A stretch of 64,000 nt of DNA from Octopus vulgaris (taxonomy: Eukaryota), in the NCBI GenBank assembly GCA_951406725.2, contig OX597837.1, forward strand, positions 24,366,001 through 24,430,000, read 5' to 3'. Below are positions 7,947-52,530 of the stretch, in pieces. Within the stretch, counting starts at the first letter, position 1. The number at the start of each line of letters is the position of its first letter. A program made the position numbers and the translations under genes. The notes under the pieces are model-generated. The model had not been told where the DNA came from and made no database searches. It worked only from the letters and a program-made list of their open reading frames with translations.

Positions 7947-8169
7947 CTGGAATGGAAAGATTGAACAAATGATAAGAGAAAAGAAAGACTAATTATATAA
8001 ACATGATACATACATACACAGGATAATTTAGTGTGAGGTAAATTTAGTGTCGTGCTACAGATGTAGTGAAAGATCCTGTGTTAATTTGAACTCCGAACAT
8101 TGTAATACAATACTATTTCTCTTCTATTTATATATTTAGAACAAATAAGAGATATACATGCATATTGCA

Positions 8170-9845
8170 TAAGACATGCGTGCAGCACACTGCAGAAGAT
8201 ATGCATGTAGAACACTGCACAAGATGCTTATAGAACACTGTGCAAGCCATACCTGCAGGACACTGTGCAAGACACACCTGTAAGACACTACACAAGACAC
8301 ACCTGTAAGACACTACACAAGACACACATGTAGAAGACTGCACAAAACCCACCTGTAGGACATTACACAAAACACACCTGTAGGACACTGCACAAGACAC
8401 ACCTGTAGGACACTGCACAAGACACACCTGGAAGACACTACACAAGACACACATGTAGAAGACTGCACAAAACCCACCTGTAGGACATTACACAAAACAC
8501 ACCTGTAGGACACTGCACAAGACACACCTGTAGGACACTGCACAAGACACACCTGGAAGACACTACACAAGACACACATGTAGAAGACTGCACAAAACCC
8601 ACCTGCAGGACATTACACAAGACACACCTGTAGGAGTCTGCACATAACACACTTGTAGGACACAGCACAAGACACACCTGTAGGACACTGTACTCCACTG
8701 GACATGTCTGTAGGACACTGTACTGCACTAAACACACCCGTAGGACACTGCACAAGACACACCTGTAGGATACTGCACAAGACACACCTGTAGGATACTG
8801 CAGAAGAAACACCTCTAGGACACTTCCCTAAAAACACAGTTGTATGACACTGCACAAGACACACCTGTAAGACACTACATACAAGACACACCTATAGGAC
8901 ACTGCACAAAATACACCACTAAAACATTGCACAAGACACACATGTAGCACACTGCACAAGACATACCTGTAGGACACTGCTCAAGACACACATGTAGCAC
9001 ACTGCACAAGACATACCTGTAGGACACTGCTCAAGACATACCTGTAGGAGAGTGTGTGAGACATACCTGTAGGACACTGCACAAACACACTTGTAAGACA
9101 CTTCATGAGACCCATCTGTAGGACACTACACAAAACACACCTATAAGTCACTGCACAAAGTGCATCTGTGCTACACTACACGGAATATGCCTGTGGGACA
9201 ATGCAAAGAACACACTTGTGGGATACTGCAAAAAACCACACTTTGTGGGGCACTATACAAAACAATCTGTGGGGTACTACATAAGTCACACCTATAAAAC
9301 ACTGCAAGACACATCTGCTGGACACAGCAGATGCAAATGCAGAACACTGCACAAGACATACCTGTGGGACACTGCACAAGACATGCCTGTGGGACACTGC
9401 ACAAGACAAGCCTGTGGGATACTGCACAAGACAAGCCAGTGGGACACTGCACAAGACATGCATGTGGGACACTATACAAGGCAATTCTGCTGGACACTGC
9501 ACGAGACATACTTGCTGGTCATTGCACAGAACACACTTACTGGACACTACACAAGACACACCTGCTGGACAATGCAAAAGACACACCTGTAGGACACTGC
9601 ACAAAACATACCTGTAGGACACTGCACAAGACATACCTGTAGGACACTGTACAAGACATACCTGTAGGACACTGCACAAGACACACCTGTAGGACACTAC
9701 ACAAGGCACACCTGTAGGATACTATACAAAACACAGTGTAGGATACTATGCAAAACACATCTGTGGGACACTGCACAAAACACACCTGTGGGAAACTGCA
9801 CAAAACATACCTGTGGGAAATTGGACAAAGCACACCTGTAGGACG
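8170..9845. repeat. 25-bp minisatellite (ACACCTGTAGGACACTGCACAAGAC)n with a 125-bp higher-order block
   Basis: Roughly 65 diverged units. A five-unit block repeats at 8311, 8436 and 8561. Confidence 0.95.
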
Positions 9846-12921: not shown

Positions 12922-14140
12922 CAGGGGTTAGACAAAATAAAGGAAACACCTTAAAATTTCAAACAAATTTATTTTAATATGGGGTACGACCACCTTTGGC
13001 AGTAATTACAGCTTGAATTCTACGAGGTATGGACTCGTACAAAGTTTGAATTGTTTCCAAAGGGATTTTTGTCCATCCTTCAGCTAAAACAGTCTCCAAT
13101 TCTTGCAGTGATGATGGTGGAGGTTATAGACTCCTTACTTGTTCAATAATATAGAAATCTGGGGACTGTGGTGGCCAGATACGATGTTCAACTTCATTAG
13201 AATGTTCCTCGTGCCATTCAGTAACAACTTTAGCTGTATGAATTGGTGCATTATCATCCTGAAACAGTTCTGCAACCATAGGATGAATTTGATCAGATAA
13301 AATGCTTAAATAGTCTTGACTATTAATTCTGCCATGAAGGGAAACCATTGGGCCAGTGGATTTCCAAGATATAGCCCTCCAGATCATCACAGATCCTCCT
13401 CCATGTTTAACAGTTGGAAGAAGACAGTCTGGGTCAAATGCTTCTTTTGGCAGTCTCCACACATATACTCAGCCAGTGGTCGGAAATGAGGTAAAGGATG
13501 ACTCGTCTGAGAAAATAACATTCTTCCACTGCTCTAGGGACCAATTCTGTAGGTTTTTACTCCACTCTAAACACTTTGCAACGTTTGATTTTAAAAGTAG
13601 TGGTTTTCTGATTGCAGTCCTCCCGTGAAATCCAGCTTTGTGCAGCTCCCGGCAAACAGTTTCTGTGGAAACTGCCTTCTCAAGGTGGTCATTAAGCTCT
13701 GCAGTAATTTTGGGAGCTGTACTTTTGTGATCCGTTCTAACAATTCTCGTAAGAGTCTGATGGTCCCTTTCTGAAAGTCTTGGTTTTCTTCCAGAGTTTT
13801 GTTTCAACGAGGAGGTTTTTCCCTCTTTCTCAAAGACTGTCATTACTTTTGAGACAGTAGTTTTTGATATCACCAAACATTTCGGCTGTTTTTGTTATGC
13901 TAGCACCTCCCATATGAGAACCAACAATTTGACCGCTTTGAAAGTGCGATAGATCTGTCATTTTAATGAATTTTAATTACCTTTTTCTGATGATATCTGA
14001 AAAGAAACTGCAATTTTAGAAAAACATATGAAGCAACACTAATAATAAATCAAAAAGCATAAAAATAAACAAGCTTTTGAGTTTTATAGATATTTCAAAA
14101 TTTTGATGCTATGATGCTAAGTGTTTCCATTATTTTGTCA
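12922..14140 (-). mobile_element. Tc1-family DNA transposon with disrupted transposase (~13961-12974)
   Basis: TA-CAGGGGTTAGACAAAATAAAGGAAACAC left TIR and partial right TIR GTGTTTCCATTATTTTGTCA. Motifs WKNVIFSDES, TVKHGGGSVMIW, FQDDNAPIH and WPPQSPD are present, with frameshifts and stops. Confidence 0.92.
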
Positions 14141-16662: not shown

Positions 16663-17654
16663 CAAAAGACATTATACCTCCTACCTCCACTGGAACATGC
16701 TTGTGCCATTTCTTTCTAGCCTTTGCATATCCCCAACATTCAAGGTTCAGATCTCATTATACTTCACACCCAAGTATCATCTCAGAGTATTGGTAACAAC
16801 AAGTGCCTCATTTATAGAATAATGACTATGAAAACTTTTAGTAAGATAAAAAAAACAAAAAAAAAACAAGAAGTAGATTACTGAGTTGAAGGGACATCAA
16901 AAAGGTTTCCAGAAGTCAGTAGTGGTTATGCTGGTGTGAATACAAGGTGAAAAGATTGGCAAACCAAGGTGTTGAAGGATTAATGAATCCAAGCAAAAGA
17001 GTCACTTAACTTTCCATCTAGCAACAGAAACAAATTCCATTTAGCAGCCCATAGATGAGAATCAAATGGAACTTATATGGACACAGGTTCATGTGTCATA
17101 TAGCTAGCTAGAGGCGATGGCCTCTTGCAGCTAATCAACGGCAGCTTAAGTCTTATATTTATGGACTGCCATATTAGCTTGGCGATAACTGTTAATTTCC
17201 AGTACCGTTGTCGTAGTCTCCTTTAGAGAGACTTAGAAATTTTAATATTTCTATTTTTGAAACTTATATCATTAGCAGAATTTAGTATTTATTTATTTAT
17301 TTATTCTCACTTACTCACTCACTCACACACATGCACACGCACACACACACACACACAGAAGAAAAGAGAACCAGTATTTCATAACGGGCAATTGGATGTA
17401 TCTCATTCTTAATGTAAAGTTTCAGAATAAATTAGGTGACAAGTGTATAATAAAGAATATAGCTTTCAAAGATGTCTCTAACAACTGCACCCATCTGTAC
17501 TACCTGCGTAGGCTTTATGTTAACACAAGAAGGAAACATTTCCGAAGAAAATACAATTTCAAATAAAAATAAAAATTAAGAATTTTGCGATCCTCTGTAA
17601 AATTCAAATTATCGTATAACTTTCCAAAATACCTATAAAACATTTATAAGTACA

Positions 17655-17724
17655 ATTTTATTTTATTTTATTTTATCTAGTTTCAGCTCACGAGCTATGG
17701 CCATGCTGGGGCACTGCCATTTGA
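17655..17724 (-). mobile_element. Extreme 3' tail of CR1-group LINE with (TAAAA)n
   Basis: AATGGCAGTGCCCCAGCATGGCCATAGCTCGTGAGCTGAAACTAGAT is near-identical to the LINE 3' end at 42897-42943. Confidence 0.8.
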
Positions 17725-17738
17725 AAAATGTCATTCGT

Positions 17739-17811
17739 AGGTTCCAGCGAGTTTTGAACTCACGACCTTCTGCGTGTTAAGCAGATGTGATAACCACTAC
17801 ACCATGGAACC
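17739..17811 (-). tRNA. tRNA-Val(AAC) gene or retrocopy
   Basis: GGTTCCATGGTGTAGTGGTTATCACATCTGCTTAACACGCAGAAGGTCGTGAGTTCAAAACTCGCTGGAACCT folds as a full cloverleaf (acceptor GGTTCCA/TGGAACC; anticodon stem TCTGC/GCAGA with AAC). T5 lies ~10 nt downstream. The discriminator is an atypical T. Confidence 0.8.
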
Positions 17812-17899
17812 TTGGTACTGTTTGTAAATAATGTGCAGCAAAAAAGCCAATGTATTTAGAGAAATAACTACATTCCTACAAAATTGCAGTCATGCAAAC

Positions 17900-34169: not shown

Positions 34170-35883
34170 CTAATTGGTAACACTAACTTCAGGAAACCGA
34201 CAAGCCACTTGGTCACCTACCGTTCGGGCCAGCATACTAGCCAAATCGACTACATCCTTGCCAGAAAAAGGGAAAGACGGCTGCTTATAAATGCCAAAAC
34301 CTTCCCAGGCGAAGAATGTACCCCACAACATAGACTGGTAGTCAGTGACTTTAGGATCAGGACTAAGAGGATGACTAGAAGACGACCAACATGGAGAAGA
34401 AGGGTCTGGAAGCTTAAAGACCCTGCAAATGGACAGAGATTTAGAGACATGTTACTTGAAGCCTTCGACGAAATAGAAGTGGGTATAGCTACACATGGGG
34501 TAGAAGATAACTGGGCGCTTCTAAGGGACAACCTGCTGAAAGTCACTGACCAGATCTGTGGCTGGTGCAAAGTTCACACAAGACCCAAAATAACGTGGTG
34601 GTGGAACAACACTGTTGACAGGGCTATTAGACAAAAGAAACAGGCTTGGAAGGACTGGAAGAACAGTGGTAGCAGGGAAGTGTATCAGACTGCAAGAAGG
34701 GAAGCTAGGAGGCAGGTGTATTTAGCCAGAGGGGAAGCAGATAAGAAAAAATTTGCCAATGTCCTGCGCCGTGAGGATGAAAGACTTGAGGTATTTCGTA
34801 TAGCAAGACAGTGTGTGAGAGAGAATCGTGACGTGGTAGGAGAAAAATGTGTTCGCACAGATGACGGCTCACATGCGCTAAATGAGGATGCAAAGAGAGA
34901 GGTTTGGAGACGCCACTATGAAAGGTTGCTGAATGAGGAAAATGAATGGGATAAAGAGAGTCTGCCGAATGTTGACCCAACAGAGGGACCAGCAATCCGA
35001 GTTGACAGTTCCTAAGTAGTTAAGGCAATTACAAGCATGAAAACAGGGAAAGCCCCAGGCCCATCAGGAATTACTGCAGAGATGCTCAAAATATCTGGTA
35101 GTGTCGGCTATAGCCTAGTCACCCGTATAGTTAACCAGGTGATACACGAAGGAGTCATACCCAATGACTGGTGTAGCAGCATAATAGTCAACTGCTACAA
35201 AGGTAAAGGTGACGCCCTAGATACAAATAACTACAGGGGTATCAAGCTGCTGGATCAGGTAATGAAGGTTACGGAGAGGGTTATAGCCCAACTAATTAGA
35301 GAGAGAGTTAGCTTAGATCAGATGCAGTTTGGGTTCGTGCCAGGGAAAAGTACTACTGATGCTATTTTCCTGGTAAGACAGCTGCAGGAGAAATACCTAG
35401 CCAAAGACAAGCCCCTATACCTGGCTTTTGCTGATATGGAGAAAGCCTTCAACAGGGTCCCCCGATCCCTTATCTGGTGGTCAATGAGGAAACTAGGGAT
35501 AGATGAATGGTTAGTGAGAGCTGTACAAGCCATGTACAGAGACGCTGCTAGTAAGGTGAGAGTTAGCATCGAGTACAGTGAAGAATTCAGGGTAGACGTT
35601 GGGGCCCACCAAGGTTCAGCCTTGCCTGGCCCCCGTGCCGGTGGCACATAAAAGCACCATCCGTTCGTGGCCGTTTGCCAGCTCTGTCTGGCACCTGTGA
35701 GGGTGGCACGTAAAAAGCACCCACTACACTCACGGAGTGGTTGGCGTTAGGAAGGGCATCCAGCCGTAGAAACACTGCCAGATCTGACTGGGCCTTTTGA
35801 AGCTTTCCGGCTTCACAGACCCCAGTTGAACCGTCCAACCCATGCTAGCATGGAAAACGGACGCTAAATGATGATGATGATGA
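34167..35883 (+). mobile_element. RTE-clade LINE, 5'-truncated and internally deleted
   Basis: End of APE domain (SQIDYIL, QHRLVV) and RT motifs KAPGPSG, NYRGIKLL, QFGF, DMEKAF. One in-frame stop. Jumps from HQGS to the 3' end with a (GAT)n tail. Confidence 0.92.
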
Positions 35884-35929
35884 TATATATATATATATAA
35901 ATTAGAAAAAAACCCACCTTTTATCAATT

Positions 35930-36234
35930 CAATAATGGAAAATTAAATTATACCATTTAGAAAAATTACATATTATAGAAAGATTAAATATAAGATAAAA
36001 CATGTAACAATGATTAAGTAATGTGCAAAATAGTAAATAAAACGTATATATTTTTGGTATATATACCAAAAAATAGTAAATAAAACGTATATATTTTTGG
36101 TACATATACCAAAAAATATACAATTTATTTACTATTTTGCACATTACTTAATCATTGTTATATGTTTTATCTTATATATAATCTATCTATAATATGTAAT
36201 TTTTCTAAATGGTATAATTTAATTTTTCATTATT
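35930..36234. repeat. AT-rich fold-back repeat with duplicated central hairpin
   Basis: Arms ~35930-36040 and ~36124-36234. The centre has two copies of TATTTTTGGTAYATATACCAAAAAATA. Confidence 0.9.
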
Positions 36235-36591
36235 GCTTCCAGTTTCCAGCTACCAAATCACTTCACAAGACTTTAGTAGGCTCAAGGCTACTAGAAGACA
36301 CTTGCTCAAAGTACCACACAATGGGACTGAACCCATAACCATGTGGTTGGGAAGTAAGCTTCTTACCATACAGCCACACATTTTATTTTCAATGTTAGTA
36401 AAATTCTACTTTTGTGACCCCTTTCAAAACTAGACCAACACTTGTTCAGGCAGGAAACTAGTGCCCAAGATAAACTTGGTATAGCCTTTACTAATTACTG
36501 AGTGAATGTACTAATTCATCATCATCTGGCATGAGTTGGACAGATTGACCTGGGCTGGCAAGCTGGAAGGCTGCACCAGACACCAACCACT

Positions 36592-37914
36592 TACATCAAT
36601 AATCAACAAGATGTTCGAAACCATCCTTAAGAAAAGTATGATGCTCCACCTCCAAAACACAGCCTCTATCTCTGATTCCCAACACGGCTTCGTGCCAAAG
36701 AGATCATGCTTGACCAACTTACTGGTAATGGAAGAATTGTGATGATAGTGATGCTGTTGACATCGTTTTATTGGACTTTGCCAAAGCTTTTGACTCGGTA
36801 AACCACCGCCTATTACTTGTCAAGCTTCAAGCATATAGTTTCCATCCGGATATTGTACGATGGGTTGGTGCCTTCCTCTCAGATCGCTCCTTCCAAGTCC
36901 AAGTTAATGGTTCACGGTCCGACGTCTCCAGTGCGAGCAGTGGCGTGCCTCAAGGTCCAGTGCTTGGGCCCTTATTGGTCTTTATTCTTCATAAATGACT
37001 TGCCCGACGACCTCACGCAACACACCCTTCTATTTGCTGACGATATCAAACTGGTCGCTCCTCGCGGTGATATAGAAGATCTTCGTCGATGCCTCCACCA
37101 AATTTGGAGGTGGTCTAACGAATGGGACCTGTGTCTGAACGTGTCAAAGTGCTGTCATCTGCCTGTTGGCTCTCCTCCTGCAACTCAACTTGATTTCCAG
37201 CCAGGTCGTCTGCTGCTGGAGAAGACCGATCAGGTAAAGGACCTGGGTATCTTGGTGGATTCCTCCTTTTCGCCTTCGGCCCAGTGCGTCCATGCTGCCA
37301 ACAAAGCACGCGGAATTCTGTTCTTGATTCGACGGTCATTCGGAATGCTCACAGCAGCCATATTCCTACCACTCTATATCACGCTGGTGAGACCCATATT
37401 GGAGTACGGGATTCAAGCCTCTTCTCCTTATCTCCTCAAAGACATACAGCATCTCGAAAGAGTCCAGAAGCTGGCTACCCGCATGGTTCATGGTCTCAAA
37501 AATTTGTCCTATGAAGAAAGGCTGAGGACGCTCGACCTTTATTCTCTAGAAAAACGCCGCCACCATGGTGATCTCATTCTCACCCACAATATCATAAGCG
37601 GAAAGTGTAACCTCTCGAAAGAGCTGTTCTTCACTCCTGCTCCAGAGCGTCGGCTGCGGGGTCATTCCAAAAAGCTCTACCTGCGACGATTTCATCTCAA
37701 TCGAAGGAGAAGAGCTTTCTCCGTCCGGGTTGCGGATCTGTAGAACAAGCTGCCAGACGAGATGGTGAAGATGCCGACGACCGCTTTGTTCAAAGCCTCC
37801 CTTGACCTCAAGTGGCCTGAACTCTTTACATGAACACCACCCTGTACTTAACTCCATGTCCACCTACATGGCCTTGCTATTTGCTTTTGAGCCAAATTAA
37901 CTAACTAACTAACT
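36592..37914 (+). mobile_element. CR1-clade LINE, 5'-truncated, (TAAC)n tail
   Basis: QHGF, DFAKAFDSV, GVPQG, LFADD, KDLG, LERVQ, with frameshifts. Boundaries are defined by the empty site at 39478-39500. Confidence 0.93.
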
Positions 37915-39941: not shown

Positions 39942-39964
<23 letters not shown>

Positions 39965-39974
<10 letters not shown>

Positions 39975-40232
39975 TAAATTAGAGATAAAACCACTATTAG
40001 GCAAATCAAACAGTGAAAAACATAAACCAATACATAAAATTAATTTAATTTATATTATTTTAAATATATATCAAAAGTATTAAAAGTTTAATAAAAGATC
40101 TTTTATTAAACTTTTAATACTTTTGATATATATTTAAAATAATATAAATTAAATTAATTTTATGTATTGGTTTATGTTTTTCACTGTTTGATTTGCCTAA
40201 TAGTGGTTTTATCTCTAATTTAATATAATATA
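39965..40232. repeat. Perfect 268-bp palindrome without spacer
   Basis: Centre AGA|TCT at 40098/40099. No mismatch was found between the arms by manual comparison. Confidence 0.93.
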
Positions 40233-40469
40233 ATATAATCATCATCATCATCATCATCATCATTTAGCGTCCGTTTTCCATGCTAGCATGGGTTGGACGG
40301 TTCTGCTGGGGTCTGTGAAGCCAGAAGGCTTCATCAGGCCCAGTCAAATCTGGCAGTGTTTCTACGGCTGGATGCCCTTCCTAACGCCAAATATATATAT
40401 TTATACTTTAAAATTGGATTTAATCCTAAATCGGATTTTTCCCTGTAAGTTTGGATTTATTCCCTAATA

Positions 40470-41199: not shown

Positions 41200-42790
41200 T
41201 ATCAACCCAGTCATCAAAGGCTCAAAAATGGAAAATCCTCTACATCAAGGGATAGATTGCAGCACACTCACATCCAATGCATTTCTTTGTCCTGAGACCC
41301 ACCTACATGACTGTCATTCCAAGAATGCCTTGAGAAGATCAAATCTTTCTTCCTGCAATGTAACCCAGGAAATATTCTGATGATGGGTGACTTCAACCTA
41401 CACTCTGTAGATTGGTCTACTAATATTGATAGACCTGGAACCTTCATCTCAAGCTCAGACAAAGCAGCAGTGGAGTTACTTTTTAAATTTATGGATAATT
41501 TTTTCTTGTTACAGCTTGTCCATGAACCAACCAAAAATAACCCAAGCAGACATGCTAACACTATTCAGAACATCACAGTGGAAAGAACCCTCCTCTCCGA
41601 TCATGACATAGTAATCTGTAACCTCAATCTTCAGCATCCAAAAATTTGGCATAAATCACTAACTCCAGTACACCAATTTGATAACATGATTTACACAAGT
41701 CAAACTGGGCACGTATAAGAGGGCCACTATGAATAGCAGTGGCCCCAAGACAGTGGCCTATGGAACACCACTTGCTATTTGTGTTTCCTTGGAGGTGGAT
41801 CCTTTGGCCACTACTACTGCCTGACATCTTTCCTTTAGAAAGTTGTGCAACCATTCTCCAAGTTTTCCACATATGCCGAAATTGTGTAGTTGACCAAAGT
41901 CAACTGTTTTGCAAAATCGAGGTATATCACATCCACGCTTGAGTCATTCAGCAGCTGTTTTAACACCCAGTGCAGGAGCTGTGTCAGACAGCTTCTTCCT
42001 GGATGAAATCCATGCTGGGTGTCAGCCAGTAAGTCAGTTTCTTGCAGACTATTCATTCCATGATTTTACTGATGTGTGAGGTCAGAGAAATAGGCCTAGA
42101 ATTTTTAGCATCTGCTCTGCTTCCTCTCTTATGGATAAGGCATATTATCCCTTCCTTCAGTTTATCTGGGAGCATACCACTTGCAAGGAAGTTCTGGAAG
42201 AGAAACTGCAGTGGTTTTGTAAGGGCTCGCTTGCATGATTTGAGTAGGACCACTGCAAATCCATCCGGCCAGCCACTGAGTTTGTGTCAGCCTCATCTAT
42301 GGCCAGTATTACAATGTTTATGAACTCAATTTTTTCAACCTCTTTGGTTTTAGGTATTGTGATAAAGAATTCTGCTGGTTTGTTCACTTGCCTGTGTCCC
42401 AGTGGTGTACTAAACACACTTTGGAACTGTTCATTCAGTATTTCACTTACCCTCATGGGGTTTCCGGTGAGGGAGCCACCTTTTTGGAAGGGGGATCCAA
42501 TCTTGTGACATACTGAGCATACTGAGGCTGTTTCTTTGGAAAACTTGAGGCTTTAGTGTTTGACTATATATTTTCTATAACCCAAGTTCCTTTCTTTGCT
42601 CTCTCTTTTTCAAGAGACTGATGTGGACGCTTCTCAATCATCACTCATGTCAATACCCAGGTCTCTCACTGATTTAGGCTCTGGGATTGAAAGTCCATGT
42701 GGACTGGTGTACCCTGTAAGTTTCATATTCAGTTTTTGATACTGGTAGCACAGGGCTTAGAAATTTTCAGCATTAAACTGCATATTATTA
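41200..42790. mobile_element. Older rearranged copy of the same LINE group
   Basis: Endonuclease part (MGDFN, SDHD) on + strand 41200-41720. RT part on - strand 41720-42790. Confidence 0.75.
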
Positions 42791-42884: not shown

Positions 42885-45275
42885 ATTTTTCATTTCATCT
42901 AGTTTCAGCTCACGAGCTGTGGCCATGCTGGGGCACCGCCATTCAGTGTTGCGACATAATTTTACTTCATGAATGCTTTTTAGCAACTGACATTTGGTGC
43001 ATGAGAGAGTTCAATGGAGCTGCCCTCATCTGCACCTCCTGCTGTGAGGTTGGTTCATCTGGGACACCTGACAGGAAGAGATCCAGCTTTATTTTGAAGA
43101 CATCTGCATCCACCCCATGCAGGTCTCTCAAGTCCTTCAGGAGGATATTGAAGAGCTGTGGACCTCTGAAGGTCGCAGTATCGCAGTATCTTGTCCTACA
43201 TCTTGATGGCAAATTTGGAGTCTTTGGCACTATACAGTGGCGCCCAGTTCTAGTATTTGTGTAACTCTCAATGCCAAAGTTTGGGACAAGTCCTTCCAGG
43301 ATCTTCAAGGTGTATATTATGGCATATCTTTCTCGCCTATGCTCTAAGGAATAGAGTCTTAATCTCTTGAGTCTTTCCCAATAGCTTATATGCTGCATAG
43401 AGGCTATCTTCTTTGTGTAGCTTCGTTGGATTGCCTCAAGTTCTGAAATTAATTTGACACTGGTTGGTGACCATAGCTGAGAGCAATAGTCAAAGTGACT
43501 TAGGACAAGTGTCCTCCAGAGGACCATCATGGTTTCCTGGTCTCTTGTTCTAAAAGCTCTAAGAATCCATCCGGTCAGCCACCTAAATTTCATTGCCAAT
43601 TTAGCAACATGCACATGAAAGGTTGCATCATTACTCATGTAAATACCCAGGTCTCACACTGATTGTGCCTCTGGGATTGCAATCCCTCCAGGTCCAGTGT
43701 ATCTATTGGGTATTGCATTTAGTTTTGCATGCTGATAGCATAAAGCTTGAAACTTTTCAGCATTGAACTGCATGCTATTCTTTTCATATTCTTTGTATAT
43801 TTTGTCCAGCTCACATTGCAGGTGCATAGTGTCTTCAGGGTTCTGTATTGCCTGTGAAACTTTTGTATCATCTGCATAACTTGTGATTGTGGCTCTCTGC
43901 GTGGCTGAGGGCATGTCTGAGAGGGCCATTATGAACAGTAGTGGTCCCAAAACAGTGCCTTGCGGAACACTGCTCACTATTTGCGTGTTAATGGAAGTGG
44001 CCCCATTGGCTACTACCACCTGACTTCTATCCTTCAGAAAGTCATAAGCCATTCTCCCAATTTTCCAACTATGCCAAGATCACGCAGTTTGTGACAGATC
44101 ATTCCATGATCGACTTTATCAAAGGCCTTTGCAAAGTCGAGATATATGACTTCCACATTTGAGTGGTTGAGCAGTCATTTCAGCACCCAGTCATAGTGTT
44201 GTAGGAGCTGAGTTAGGCAGCTTCTTCCTGGTCGGAAACCATGTTGGGTGTCAAGCAGCAAGTCATTTTCTTCAAGGAAGGTGATTAGTTTCCTTCTGAC
44301 TATTCATTCCATGACCTTACTGATGTGTGAGGTCAGAGAGATAGGTCTGTAGTTCTTGGCCTCCACTCTGCTACCTCCTTTATGAATAGGGCATATTTTA
44401 CCTTCCTTCAGTTTTCTTGGAAGTTTGCCAGTTGCAAGGAAGCTCTGAAAGAGGAACTGCAGTGGTCTTGCTAGGACTCTCTTACATACTTTAAGAAGGA
44501 TTGCTGGGAATCCATAGGGGCCAGCAGCTGAGTTTGTTTTCATTTCATCTATAGCCTTTATTACATCGCCTTCCTCTATATTGATGTAATCAATCATCAC
44601 TGCCTCTGATTTTATATCTGCAGTGAAAGAAGTCAGTTGGATTGCTGACTTGAAAATACCCTAGGGGTGGAGTGAAAATACTCTTGAATTGCTCATTTCG
44701 TATTTCACTTATCCTCATTGGATTTCCTGTGAGTGTGCCATCCTTTTCAAGGAGTGGCTCTATCCTACAGTGCACCATAGCTGTTTGTTTGGCATACCTG
44801 TAGAAAGCTCTGGGATTAGATTTTATGTTGTCTATAGCCCAGGCTTCTTTGTCTGCTCTTTCTTTTTCATGGGACAGTTGCAGACATTTTTCAATTTCCA
44901 ACAGCTTTATTTTCAGGCAGGAATTTTCACTGCTTCCAATTTGTTTGTTTAGGCAATTTGAAACTTTTGTACGCCGTCTCATTAGAATTTTCCTCTCTCT
45001 GGGGATTTTGTTCCTGTGTATAGTGGCCTTTCTCTTTGGGACACATTTGTAGCATATGGCTTGCATTACAGACATGAATTGTTGAAGTTTCATGTCGATG
45101 TCTGGCGAGGAGAGACATTCAGGCCAGTTTTGTTTGAGGATCTCTTTCTCAATTTGTTTCCAGTTTGCCTTATGGAAGTTCAAGCTGGAAAGATTCTGAG
45201 AGTTTCTTGTAGACTGCATGTCCATGCTTTCCTTTGGCCCGTACATGGTCAACTCTACCATGTTGTGATCTGAGA
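42885..45275 (-). mobile_element. CR1-group LINE, 5'-truncated (~2.4 kb), between TA tracts
   Basis: SDHNMV, NYRPISLTSH, QHGF, DFAKAFDKV, VPQGTVLGP, YADDTK, SYWERL, with stops and frameshifts. 3' stem-loop tail. Confidence 0.93.
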
Positions 45276-48827: not shown

Positions 48828-49292
48828 TAAATCCTTAAATCCTTAAAAATGTTTTAGCCCAAAGGCCGCGGCCATGCTGGGGCACCACCACTGAATGAGC
48901 TACACTAATATGTGAATCCACCTCTGATACGTGGCACTTGATCAACAAGGGAGTTCGATGCTGCCGCCCGCATCTGCGTCTCCTGTCGTGAGGTAGGTTC
49001 ATCTGGGACTCCCGACAAGAAGAGATCCAGTTTAGTTTTAAAGAAACCTACATCCACACCATGTAAGTCTCTCAGGAATTTAGGGAGGATGTTAAAGAGA
49101 TGTGATCCTCTGAAACCCAAGCTGTTGCAGTATCTGGACCTGTATTTTGATGGTGATGTTGGAATCTTTGGCACCATACAGTGGCGCCCCATTCTGCGGT
49201 TGGGGTAACTTTGAATGCCAAAGTTTGGGACAAGACCCTCCAAGATTTTCCAGATGTATATCACCGCATATCTCTCCCGCCTCCGCTCTAGA
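48828..49292 (-). mobile_element. CR1-group LINE 3' fragment
   Basis: [25 protein letters not shown]...GVPDEPT, then stem-loop tail and (TTTAAGGA)n. Confidence 0.9.
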
Positions 49293-49311
49293 TATATATA
49301 CATATATACAC

Positions 49312-49343
<32 letters not shown>

Positions 49344-50221
49344 ATACATATATACACATGTATACATATATACACATATATACATATATACACATGTATA
49401 CATATATACACATATATACATATATACACATGTATACATATATACATATATATATATATATACATGTACACATATATACATGTATATATACATATATATA
49501 TACACATATATATATATACATATATATATACACACACATACACTTATATACATATACATTTATATACACACATATACAAATATATATACATATATATATA
49601 CACATATATATATACACACACACATACAGATACACATATATATACATACATATACATATACATATACACACACATACATATATACACACATATCTATGTA
49701 TATATATGTATATCTATATATGTATACATATATTTATATATATACACATATATATACACACACACACATATATATATATGCACATATATGTATATGTATA
49801 TATATGTGTATTTCTTCATATGTGCTATTAGGCTTTAGGTGTATTTTGCTGAGTGCTATACATAAGGCTTGATAGCACGCAACAAGGTCACTCAGAAAGG
49901 GAATTTGGATTCTGTTACTGAGTTGTAACTGTCCGCAAATATTTAGAAAGATTGCAGATGTGAACATTTGCGCTAATACCAGTGGTGGCTCCTCTGGAAC
50001 TAATGACTGTGTTGGTTTTGTACTTAGGTGGAAATGACTAACTCTGAAACTGATGGTTGCCTGGTCAATTGCTGTACAATCTTTAGTGCCACATATAAAA
50101 AAGGATTGTTGCTCAGCTGCAGCCCTTATGATGGCATCTAGGTAGGGTTGGCTGTCGGTAGCAGCTTGCACAATATCAGCATTCTTTCATTTTGGTGCAG
50201 GAGAAGTGATTTTTCTCCATA

Positions 50222-51391: not shown

Positions 51392-52530
51392 ACAGACCAT
51401 GACAGAAGTAAATAGACAACCCATAAAATATTAAGCATAATTAAATCTCAGAATGAGATTGAAACAGTAATCGCTCGATAATATAAAGTATAGAAGCCAT
51501 CTTATCATGGCTAACCACATTGGGGAGGGGGTGTTACTGTAGCTTTATAGCCCCAAGAGATCTTCGTCTCTAGCTGGCTTTAGACACAATATCTGTGTCC
51601 GGGGCTAAAAAGCTACAGTAACACCCCCTCCCCAATGTGGTTAGCCATGATAAGATGGCTTCTATACTTTACACCATAAAATATTGTTTTATGTTTATTT
51701 TTTATCTTGTAATGGTTTACATTTTTCATTAATTGACATTTTTATGTTTCAGGTCCTGTATGTGTCCGTTTAATCAGGCCATGTACAAAAGAAAGCCTTG
51801 GTACTGTCTGAATTTCAAAGAGGCCATATGGTGGGTCATTCTGAAGGTGGACATAGCGTAAAATCGCAGAAAACCTTGGGATCCCACTTTCTACAGTTAA
51901 TAGAGTGACTGTGCAATTCACCAGAGAGGGGAAGGAGTCTACATCACCTCGCCCAGCTCAACCAGGGCCCTCTGACAGGACCCTTCTCTTTGCTAAGAGA
52001 AGTGTGGTGGATAATCCTTGTTGCAAGGCCTCTGACCTAGCAGAACAAGTTGATGTCTGTCCCAGAACAGCTGTCAGGTATCTCCACAAACTTGGTTACT
52101 GTGGTAGTGCAGAAGGAGGAAGCCACTTCTTCGAACAGCCAACATCAAATGGAGAAAAGATTAGGCCCGTGACATGGTGGAGAGGCCACTAGCATTTTGG
52201 GATGCTGTCTTATTCTCTGATGAGTCCAGATTTGCTGTATTTCTGACAGAGGTCAAGTGTGGGTCTGGAGACTCTGTGATCAAGAATTTGATGTGAAATG
52301 ACTGCAGCCAACAATGAAACACAGCAGCTATACTGCGATGGTCTGGGGAGCCATTTGGAGCAACGGTTGATCAGAGCTGGTGGAGTGTGATGGAAACATA
52401 AACTCAGATAGATATATGCCCATATTGCAGAAAGGACTCCTTCAAATCTTCTCCGGTAATGAAATGATTACAGAAGACTATTTATGGAAGATAGGGCTCC
52501 TTGTCACATGGCTAAAATAACCCAAGATTT
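51392..52530 (+). mobile_element. Degenerate Tc1-family transposon
   Basis: Fragments LSEFQRGHMVG, VLFSDESRF, MKHSSYTAMVWGAI and MEDRAPCH, with many frameshifts. Confidence 0.75.
51433..51673. mobile_element. Fold-back insertion with 12-bp target-site duplication inside a Tc1 remnant
   Basis: Inverted arms ~51484-51554 and ~51601-51671. CCATAAAATATT flanks both sides (51421 and 51674). Confidence 0.75.

Follow-up and report, generated by a model that had tools for sequence, protein, structure and literature searches.

A tRNA-Val transcript joined to the 3' tail of a LINE in Octopus vulgaris belongs to a class of small-RNA/LINE chimeras with a fixed junction

The closest systems described so far are the U6-L2 and U6-Mon-1 chimeras of platypus and the Anolis U6-L2/RTE/AnolisSINE2 chimeras (PMC4476161), in which, as in the class of elements described here, U6 stands before a short segment that comes either from a stringent LINE or from its SINE, the duplications are short, and the heads are often 5'-truncated. 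Doucet et al. (2015) proposed such chimeras as a route by which SINEs gain LINE tails (PMC4476161). That survey covered U6 only, the available part of its text states neither a fixed junction nor a tail-only class, and the two of its three supplements that were searched by term yielded no list of platypus junctions (PMC4476161); the 'short L2 sequence' of platypus may be the same phenomenon, although it is not detailed there. More generally, template switching is the usual proposal for the assembly of SINEs in the portions of the literature available to us (PMC5786205, PMC4824008, PMC4758252, PMC7245038, PMC6740152), and the octopus elements OR1 and OR2 are named there among the tRNA-derived SINEs with LINE tails (PMC4824008, PMC4758252). 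Such SINEs, like the element described here, combine a tRNA head with LINE tail hairpins.

The element lies on the minus strand at positions 17655-17811 of the window, by which we mean the whole stretch of 64,000 nucleotides that was analysed (G000:C24:24366001-24430000, in a genome of 2.8 Gb). Judging by its sequence, a tRNA-Val transcript that had not been processed was copied into DNA and abuts the 3' tail module of a LINE at the fixed 5' edge of that module. The complete tRNA-Val(AAC) reported in the first-pass annotation (17739-17811, minus strand) was called independently by ARAGORN and by Rfam (RF00005, 62 bits, E 1e-12), and differs from the common gene form by one T-loop substitution. 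Upstream, on the same strand, is a 3-nt remnant of the pre-tRNA 5' leader (17812-17814), common to the tail-less genes L010 and L011 and to the chimera L002, beyond which the leader homology to these loci ends. Downstream is the pre-tRNA 3' trailer with a remnant of the Pol III terminator (17724-17738, minus strand), identical to the trailer of L010, in which the letters ACGAATGACA at 17738-17729 are followed by T5 at 17728-17724, a single C, and the tail from 17722. The tail module (17677-17723, minus strand) comprises C plus AAA, hairpin 1 (17719-17698, with one purine-purine mismatch), hairpin 2 (17697-17684) and AAACTAG. The LINE-like tail of about 47 nt noticed on first inspection was borne out by alignment to the LINE at 42885-45275, with 2 differences over 47 nt (17721 aligned to 42943 downwards), and so was the (TAAAA)n that follows it (17656-17676, minus strand), which is the terminal repeat of this LINE subfamily and is present on the LINE and on tail-only copies alike. 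The candidate target-site duplication, GTAC on the minus strand (5' copy at 17815-17818, 3' copy at 17650-17653), is only 4 nt long, short enough to be due to chance.

The element thus has the feature of small-RNA/LINE chimeric retropseudogenes, namely, a cellular RNA, through its 3' U-run, in the sense orientation and 5' of a LINE 3' end. It also has a tRNA-derived head with an internal Pol III promoter and a 3' tail common to the partner LINE, as SINEs do, but the predicted internal terminator (T5 at 17724-17728) sets it apart from SINEs, which are transcribed through. The Val body type and the T at position 73 that were remarked on at first are indeed present but are not peculiar to this copy, because Val genes in this genome ordinarily have this acceptor-stem type and T73. 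The usual Val identity base is A73. Among the examined loci, ARAGORN called 47 Val tRNAs with AAC, 11 with CAC and 9 with TAC, overlapping loci being counted repeatedly.

The LINE at 42885-45275 (minus strand; LINE-A) is a real, although 5'-truncated and broken, copy with a reverse transcriptase (RT) domain at 43657-44079; it is a relative of the tail donor, and we do not claim it as the donor itself. The 3' end of a second LINE (LINE-B; 48840-49543, minus strand) has a homologous tail preceded by a different upstream sequence. A near-intact frame of 956 aa with APE and RT is present at locus L162, where Pfam identified Exo_endo_phos_2 and RVT_1, domains common to other clades. The 3' end of the partner LINE, a stem-loop followed by short tandem repeats, has the form found in the CR1 group, and its motifs suggest that this LINE may belong to CR1, the tools themselves giving only APE plus RT. 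The sole species-named match among the relatives of the LINE protein is an Argonauta hians protein (62%). A paper on an octopus RTE element does not mention CR1 in the parts covered (PMC9115989). No host gene was detected among the 67 of the 337 window ORFs that were scanned with Pfam, all the domains found being those of transposons, so the 'intronic' position originally assigned to the element is not confirmed.

Apart from the element and its partners, transposon remnants were marked by Pfam in the window at 13127-13894 (minus strand) and at 35016-37740, 41311-41715 and 51857-52189 (all plus strand); these regions include Tc1-like transposase remnants, more LINE pieces that bear RT and endonuclease, and a weak HTH match. 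The window also contains a degenerate block of tandem repeats (8166-9844), strongly self-similar and with an AT skew, and near-perfect, palindromic inverted repeats at 39959-40237 and 35930-36235 (99% and 91%, respectively).

A search of the genome, in which 40 of 1049 candidates were scored, gave 43 matches, and the first 30 loci were examined. Sixteen of these are tail-less Val genes, 11 are Val copies joined to this tail, one carries a related SINE-type tail, and two are joined to the 5' end of a SINE. The tail-less parent with the same trailer, the search for which the first-pass annotation had recommended, exists on C25: L010 (G000:C25:18933247) shares its 3-nt leader and its trailer with the element and aligns with it over 91 nt at 97.8%, with no flank homology in the alignment beyond leader and trailer. 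The chimera L002 has the trailer of the element (L001) without the junction C, and shares no derived change with it. L002 sits inside a SINE, the halves of which rejoin, with a duplication of about 6 nt, so that the empty site can be reconstructed. The insertion of L002 into the SINE as one unit, together with the lack of parental flanks, indicates that tRNA and tail were inserted together, repeatedly, as expected of the pre-tRNA/LINE chimera that had been proposed and contrary to its alternative, a LINE inserted just behind a tRNA gene.

Two separate events, with a LINE tail landing behind a resident tRNA gene or with Pol III RNAs targeted to sites in front of existing tails or SINE heads, therefore seem highly improbable. 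One of the Pro copies, L330, is perhaps a gene that has a SINE next to it, but the chimeras have no flank homology to the parent genes, their heads are often 5'-truncated, and no LINE-A body was found upstream of the head in any of 103 junctions, the four matches being to SINE bodies; this last observation rules out targeting in front of existing tails. A LINE that targets tRNA genes and inserts beside them was likewise rejected, given the chimeras without gene flanks and the 16 tail-less Val genes. The possibility that the element belongs to a minimal SINE of about 155 bp, amplifying from a master copy, is equally slight. There are 11 Val copies with this tail, and L002 has the trailer of the element, but the 11 copies have 10 different trailers and AAC, TAC or CAC anticodons, the element and L002 differ at the junction without a common derived change, and the internal T5 is present, so that the copies with the same junction do not make up a uniform family and a Val SINE family is largely refuted.

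Among the Val loci, L014-L030 in the C25 and C23 arrays comprise dozens of arrayed genes, mostly with T at the discriminator position, and at L024 (C2:47279539) the 5' junction contains several repeats of the opening bases of the tRNA head, as if the RT had stuttered.

The event was at first considered as perhaps a one-off, but the same junction also carries U6, 5S, SINE RNAs and many other pre-tRNAs. By exact pattern, 294 tail starts in the genome are immediately preceded by a T-run and 10 by a T-run plus the extra C, and the first 70 of the 294 were examined. A Pol III 3' end was matched in 19 of the 70 junctions compared with 0 of 700 control T-runs, the library being derived from the examined loci. 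Six Rfam or ARAGORN calls bring the recognised heads to 25 and leave 45 junctions with no strictly recognised head; by eye only, about 7 of the remainder are SINE RNAs and about 11 are short tRNA ends. Among the heads are U6, 5S followed by its trailer, and the pre-tRNAs of Leu (in one case containing an intron), Glu, Ala, Val, Ser, Asp and Lys, to which other searches added His, Met with an intron, Ile, Arg, Thr, Gly and Pro (several of the isotypes assigned by eye). Identical trailers are found on different tails (L003/L012, L056/L252, L036/L198, L209/L242 and, for 5S, L236/L247/L181), which implies independent events; heads and tails are combinatorial, and each chimera is a copy of independent origin. 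Further exact parents are L358 for L331 and L338 for both L339 and L267. Among unselected tails, 6 of 74 are headed by Pol III RNAs (95% interval 3-17%), which, with 5,499 exact tails, yields an estimate of about 170-920 chimeras for the LINE-A family; dozens were seen in the genome, and hundreds are likely to exist. Dispersed Gly/Pro tRNA copies are joined to a tail or a repeat in 10 of the 21 cases examined; in 2 of the 21 (L326, L336) the join is to the interior of another repeat, which runs counter to a strict end-to-end rule. The target-site duplications found are mostly short and AT-rich; the automatic search for them was noisy and missed the variant of this copy. The class is striking, but within it the element at 17655-17811 is nothing out of the ordinary.

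Several observations concern the structure of individual chimeras. Three-part chains are present at L156 and L160 (C1), consisting, respectively, of tRNA-Lys, U6 and U6, and of a SINE 5' part, U6 and a full SINE. Some chimeras and tails are duplicated together with their flanks, segmentally or in tandem (L139-L144 at C1:132.42-132.53 Mb, L043/L044, L177/L178). In a small sample assembled post hoc, with 8 of 500 controls reaching the score of the two weakest, short tRNA heads start at positions 58, 59, 60, 59 and 59 (L036, L039, L046, L054, L249), near m1A58, where, according to the available part of PMC11019740, a reverse transcriptase would stop. The heads of L196 and L266 both start at position 63, and matched starts at 46-57 are confined to the long heads of L045 and L242, where the match is broken at mismatches.

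To define the junction, the first 74 consecutive LINE-A tails on C1 were sorted by their 5' neighbour: 20 run into the LINE body (at least 73 nt), 13 belong to the young SINE family described below (SINE-D), and 41 do neither, being tail-only or chimeric. The starts of these 41 tails fall 5-9 nt before the GGTG anchor in 33 cases, at 0-4 nt in 7, at 13-17 nt in one and at 18-72 nt in none (binomial p 1e-36 for a 5-nt window picked after the data were seen), and tail-only insertions starting at this hotspot are the commonest LINE-A product. Among the first 30 examined of the 1,619 exact LINE-B tails, 13 are tail-only, with 8 starts at 6-8 nt and none at 9-181 nt, so the register of the junction is the same despite the different upstream sequence. 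For at least two LINE families whose upstream sequence is known, then, the junction is 2-4 nt before hairpin 1. The tail folds into two adjacent hairpins in which 97.6% of the cells pair across 13 tail variants, the structure being derived from these same sequences, and three pairs are altered on both sides across tail families. The spacers at 36 junctions, at loci largely chosen by patterns that fix the spacer, are AAA in 20, AA in 10, CAAA in 4 and other in 2. Pol III heads occur in 6 of the 41 tails at the hotspot and in 0 of 19 internal LINE truncations, a difference that is not significant (p 0.16).

U6 gives a separate view of the same junction. Among the first 30 examined of 229 exact U6 3' ends, 7 belong to a gene array and 23 are retrocopies, which represent 18 independent events after six duplicated loci were merged. 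Ten events join U6 to tail starts (of 4 tail types), 7 to SINE 5' ends and one to the 5' end of U6, and none of the 18 to the interior of a LINE. With this and the hotspot, the junction does not vary along the LINE as it does in RtcB-made U6/L1 chimeras.

In contigs aligned on the LINE 3' end, loose ends are seen at the tail edge (311-312) in X17, from another organism, and in X4, with a higher depth over the tail; we did not count these as evidence because contigs cannot show RNA ends and SINEs carry the same tail. Tail-only and truncated LINE copies often have (TA)n tracts at the 5' junction or after the tail repeat, which may reflect either a preference for such targets or synthesis without a template.

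An unlikely, although not negligible, explanation is that the same jump starts from full-length LINE RNA, with the RT stalling or releasing its template past the recognised module and switching to a U-ended RNA. This would account for the fixed junction and the tail-only copies without a new RNA species, and a 7-bp hairpin of LINE-A ends 3 nt upstream of the junction. Against it are the identical register in LINE-B in spite of its different upstream sequence, and the other partners, which are natural RNA 5' ends as expected of run-off jumps. Furthermore, where a tail of the same type is carried by the abundant SINE, all 42 unselected copies are contiguous, the RNA having been copied through, whereas 41 of 61 LINE-A tails are tail-only. 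This difference points to the template rather than the enzyme, although the control carries less weight with no known LINE partner for the SINE-type tail. Directly upstream of the tail of that SINE a hairpin can be read by eye, where the minimum-energy fold pairs the region differently.

Ligation by RtcB of a Pol III RNA with a cyclic phosphate to a tail fragment that has a 5'-OH and was cleaved at one fixed position, followed by insertion of the chimeric RNA, appears still less probable, even though it was shown for human U6/L1 and the T-runs here (3-17 nt, median 5) are similar to the human ones (4-8) (PMC6789731). As given in the available part of that paper, the reaction requires both a 2',3'-cyclic phosphate and a 5'-OH; it does not proceed when the partner bears a 5'-triphosphate, and no site in L1 is preferred (PMC6789731). 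In the octopus, three RNAs are chained at L156 and L160, and an Rfam search for a ribozyme at the LINE end gave nothing relevant. By eye, the tail module appears to be free of hammerhead and HDV consensus cores. Moreover, in 8 of the 18 U6 events the partner begins at what looks like a Pol III start site, which would carry a triphosphate or cap, and the heads include pre-tRNAs with leader, intron and trailer, which would end in 3'-OH; if the partners are primary transcripts, the ligation chemistry suits them poorly.

Instead, the element probably arose when the LINE RT, having reached the end of a short RNA that consisted of the tail alone, switched to the U-rich 3' end of a pre-tRNA. If the tail starts behave like RNA 5' ends, a discrete tail RNA is the simplest reading; the joins to natural RNA 5' ends, the three-part chains and the occasional extra bases fit end-to-end jumping. 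Jumping by the R2 RT requires non-templated addition and an overhang of 1-2 nt complementary to the 3' end of the acceptor, according to the available text of PMC8857657. In the proposed sequence of events, a discrete tail RNA of about 55 nt, bound by the LINE protein, would prime insertion, and the RT would run off its end onto U-ended Pol III RNAs, a non-templated A on the cDNA pairing with the terminal U of the acceptor; such an added A would select U-ended RNAs and hence Pol III RNAs. The tail RNA would come, somewhat more probably than from all other sources, from 5'-to-3' decay of LINE mRNA up to the hairpins, where bound protein would arrest it, with a stop of the RT at the edge a less likely source and a site-specific cut an unlikely one.

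The T-run products, the element included, would mostly be dead ends, since Pol III transcription is expected to terminate short of the tail. The dead end is not absolute, T4 and T5 runs being sometimes read through (L339, L341, L235). A terminator-free join at the same register would have been amplified as SINE-D, a young tRNA-headed SINE with at least 690 exact copies (for example, L069, L075, L081, L086 and L090). SINE-D consists of the first ~165 nt or so of a longer tRNA-headed SINE and the LINE-A tail in the register of the chimeras, with a 2-nt overlap and no T-run. T-run captures of its parent SINE (L243, L269, L200) were each seen once among the examined loci, and single captures next to an abundant terminator-free SINE-D fit a terminator filter, in one family only. 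The 2-nt overlap of SINE-D also fits an internal switch; nevertheless, it is likely that the tail-jump route founded one real SINE family as well. The idea that the locus is a snapshot of SINE birth accordingly holds for the class and not for this copy, which has its T5 terminator.

A broader reading, to which we give slightly less than even credence, is that these LINEs shed a discrete, protein-bound tail RNA of about 55 nt as their commonest mobile form and that this RNA may act as a natural adaptor from which the RT would jump to any nascent Pol III transcript, so that SINE prototypes would arise continually and only the terminator-free ones, such as SINE-D, would spread. Pre-tRNAs would then be archived gene by gene, with leader, intron, trailer and possibly m1A58 stops. 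If the adaptor reading is true, a SINE-birth pipeline becomes directly observable. The standard account of how tRNA heads came by their LINE tails, template switching, is largely a matter of inference, and here one genome presents the raw products by the dozens, a fixed join site, a tail-only intermediate and a successful SINE in the same register, so that the model becomes testable. It also follows that retrocopies account for many of the dispersed 'tRNA genes' of this genome (compare the 10 of 21 Gly/Pro copies).

In comparison with known systems, SINEs are uniform families that descend from master copies, whereas the copies described here are sums of independent chimeras, a line also drawn by Kojima (2015) in the available part of that work (PMC4494074). 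The human U6/L1 chimeras (Moldovan et al., 2019) likewise consist of full U6 with a T-run, in the sense orientation, and a 3' part of the LINE, but their junctions are reported to be variable, with no preferred site and with cyclic-phosphate/5'-OH chemistry, in the portion of the paper available (PMC6789731). In the human tRNA/L1 insertions (Law and Burns), as here, tRNA sequence was inserted together with a LINE; as far as the accessible text goes, however, the 21 loci mostly contain antisense tRNA halves, with twin priming, whereas the heads described here are sense, unprocessed and terminator-ended (PMC11838501). The jumping of the R2 RT resembles our proposal in that the enzyme runs off the 5' end of a template onto the 3' end of another RNA, as described in the part of PMC8857657 available. 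That reaction was observed in vitro with an enzyme from another LINE clade and would apply to the present one by analogy. Related work on RT jumping was reportedly published by Bibillo and Eickbush in 2004, and a 5S retropseudogene of Dictyostelium is said to have been described by Szafranski in the same year. In the literature searched, which consists of sources other than Repbase, Dfam and SINEBase entries and most subscription papers, we found no fixed tail-edge junction, dominant tail-only class, capture of whole pre-tRNAs in sense or cephalopod chimeras. Small-RNA/LINE chimeras are already known, and the part that appears to be new, within that literature, is the fixed junction with the capture of whole pre-tRNAs. 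Compared with the platypus and Anolis chimeras, those of the octopus have a fixed junction, and their heads extend to whole pre-tRNAs, 5S and SINE RNAs.
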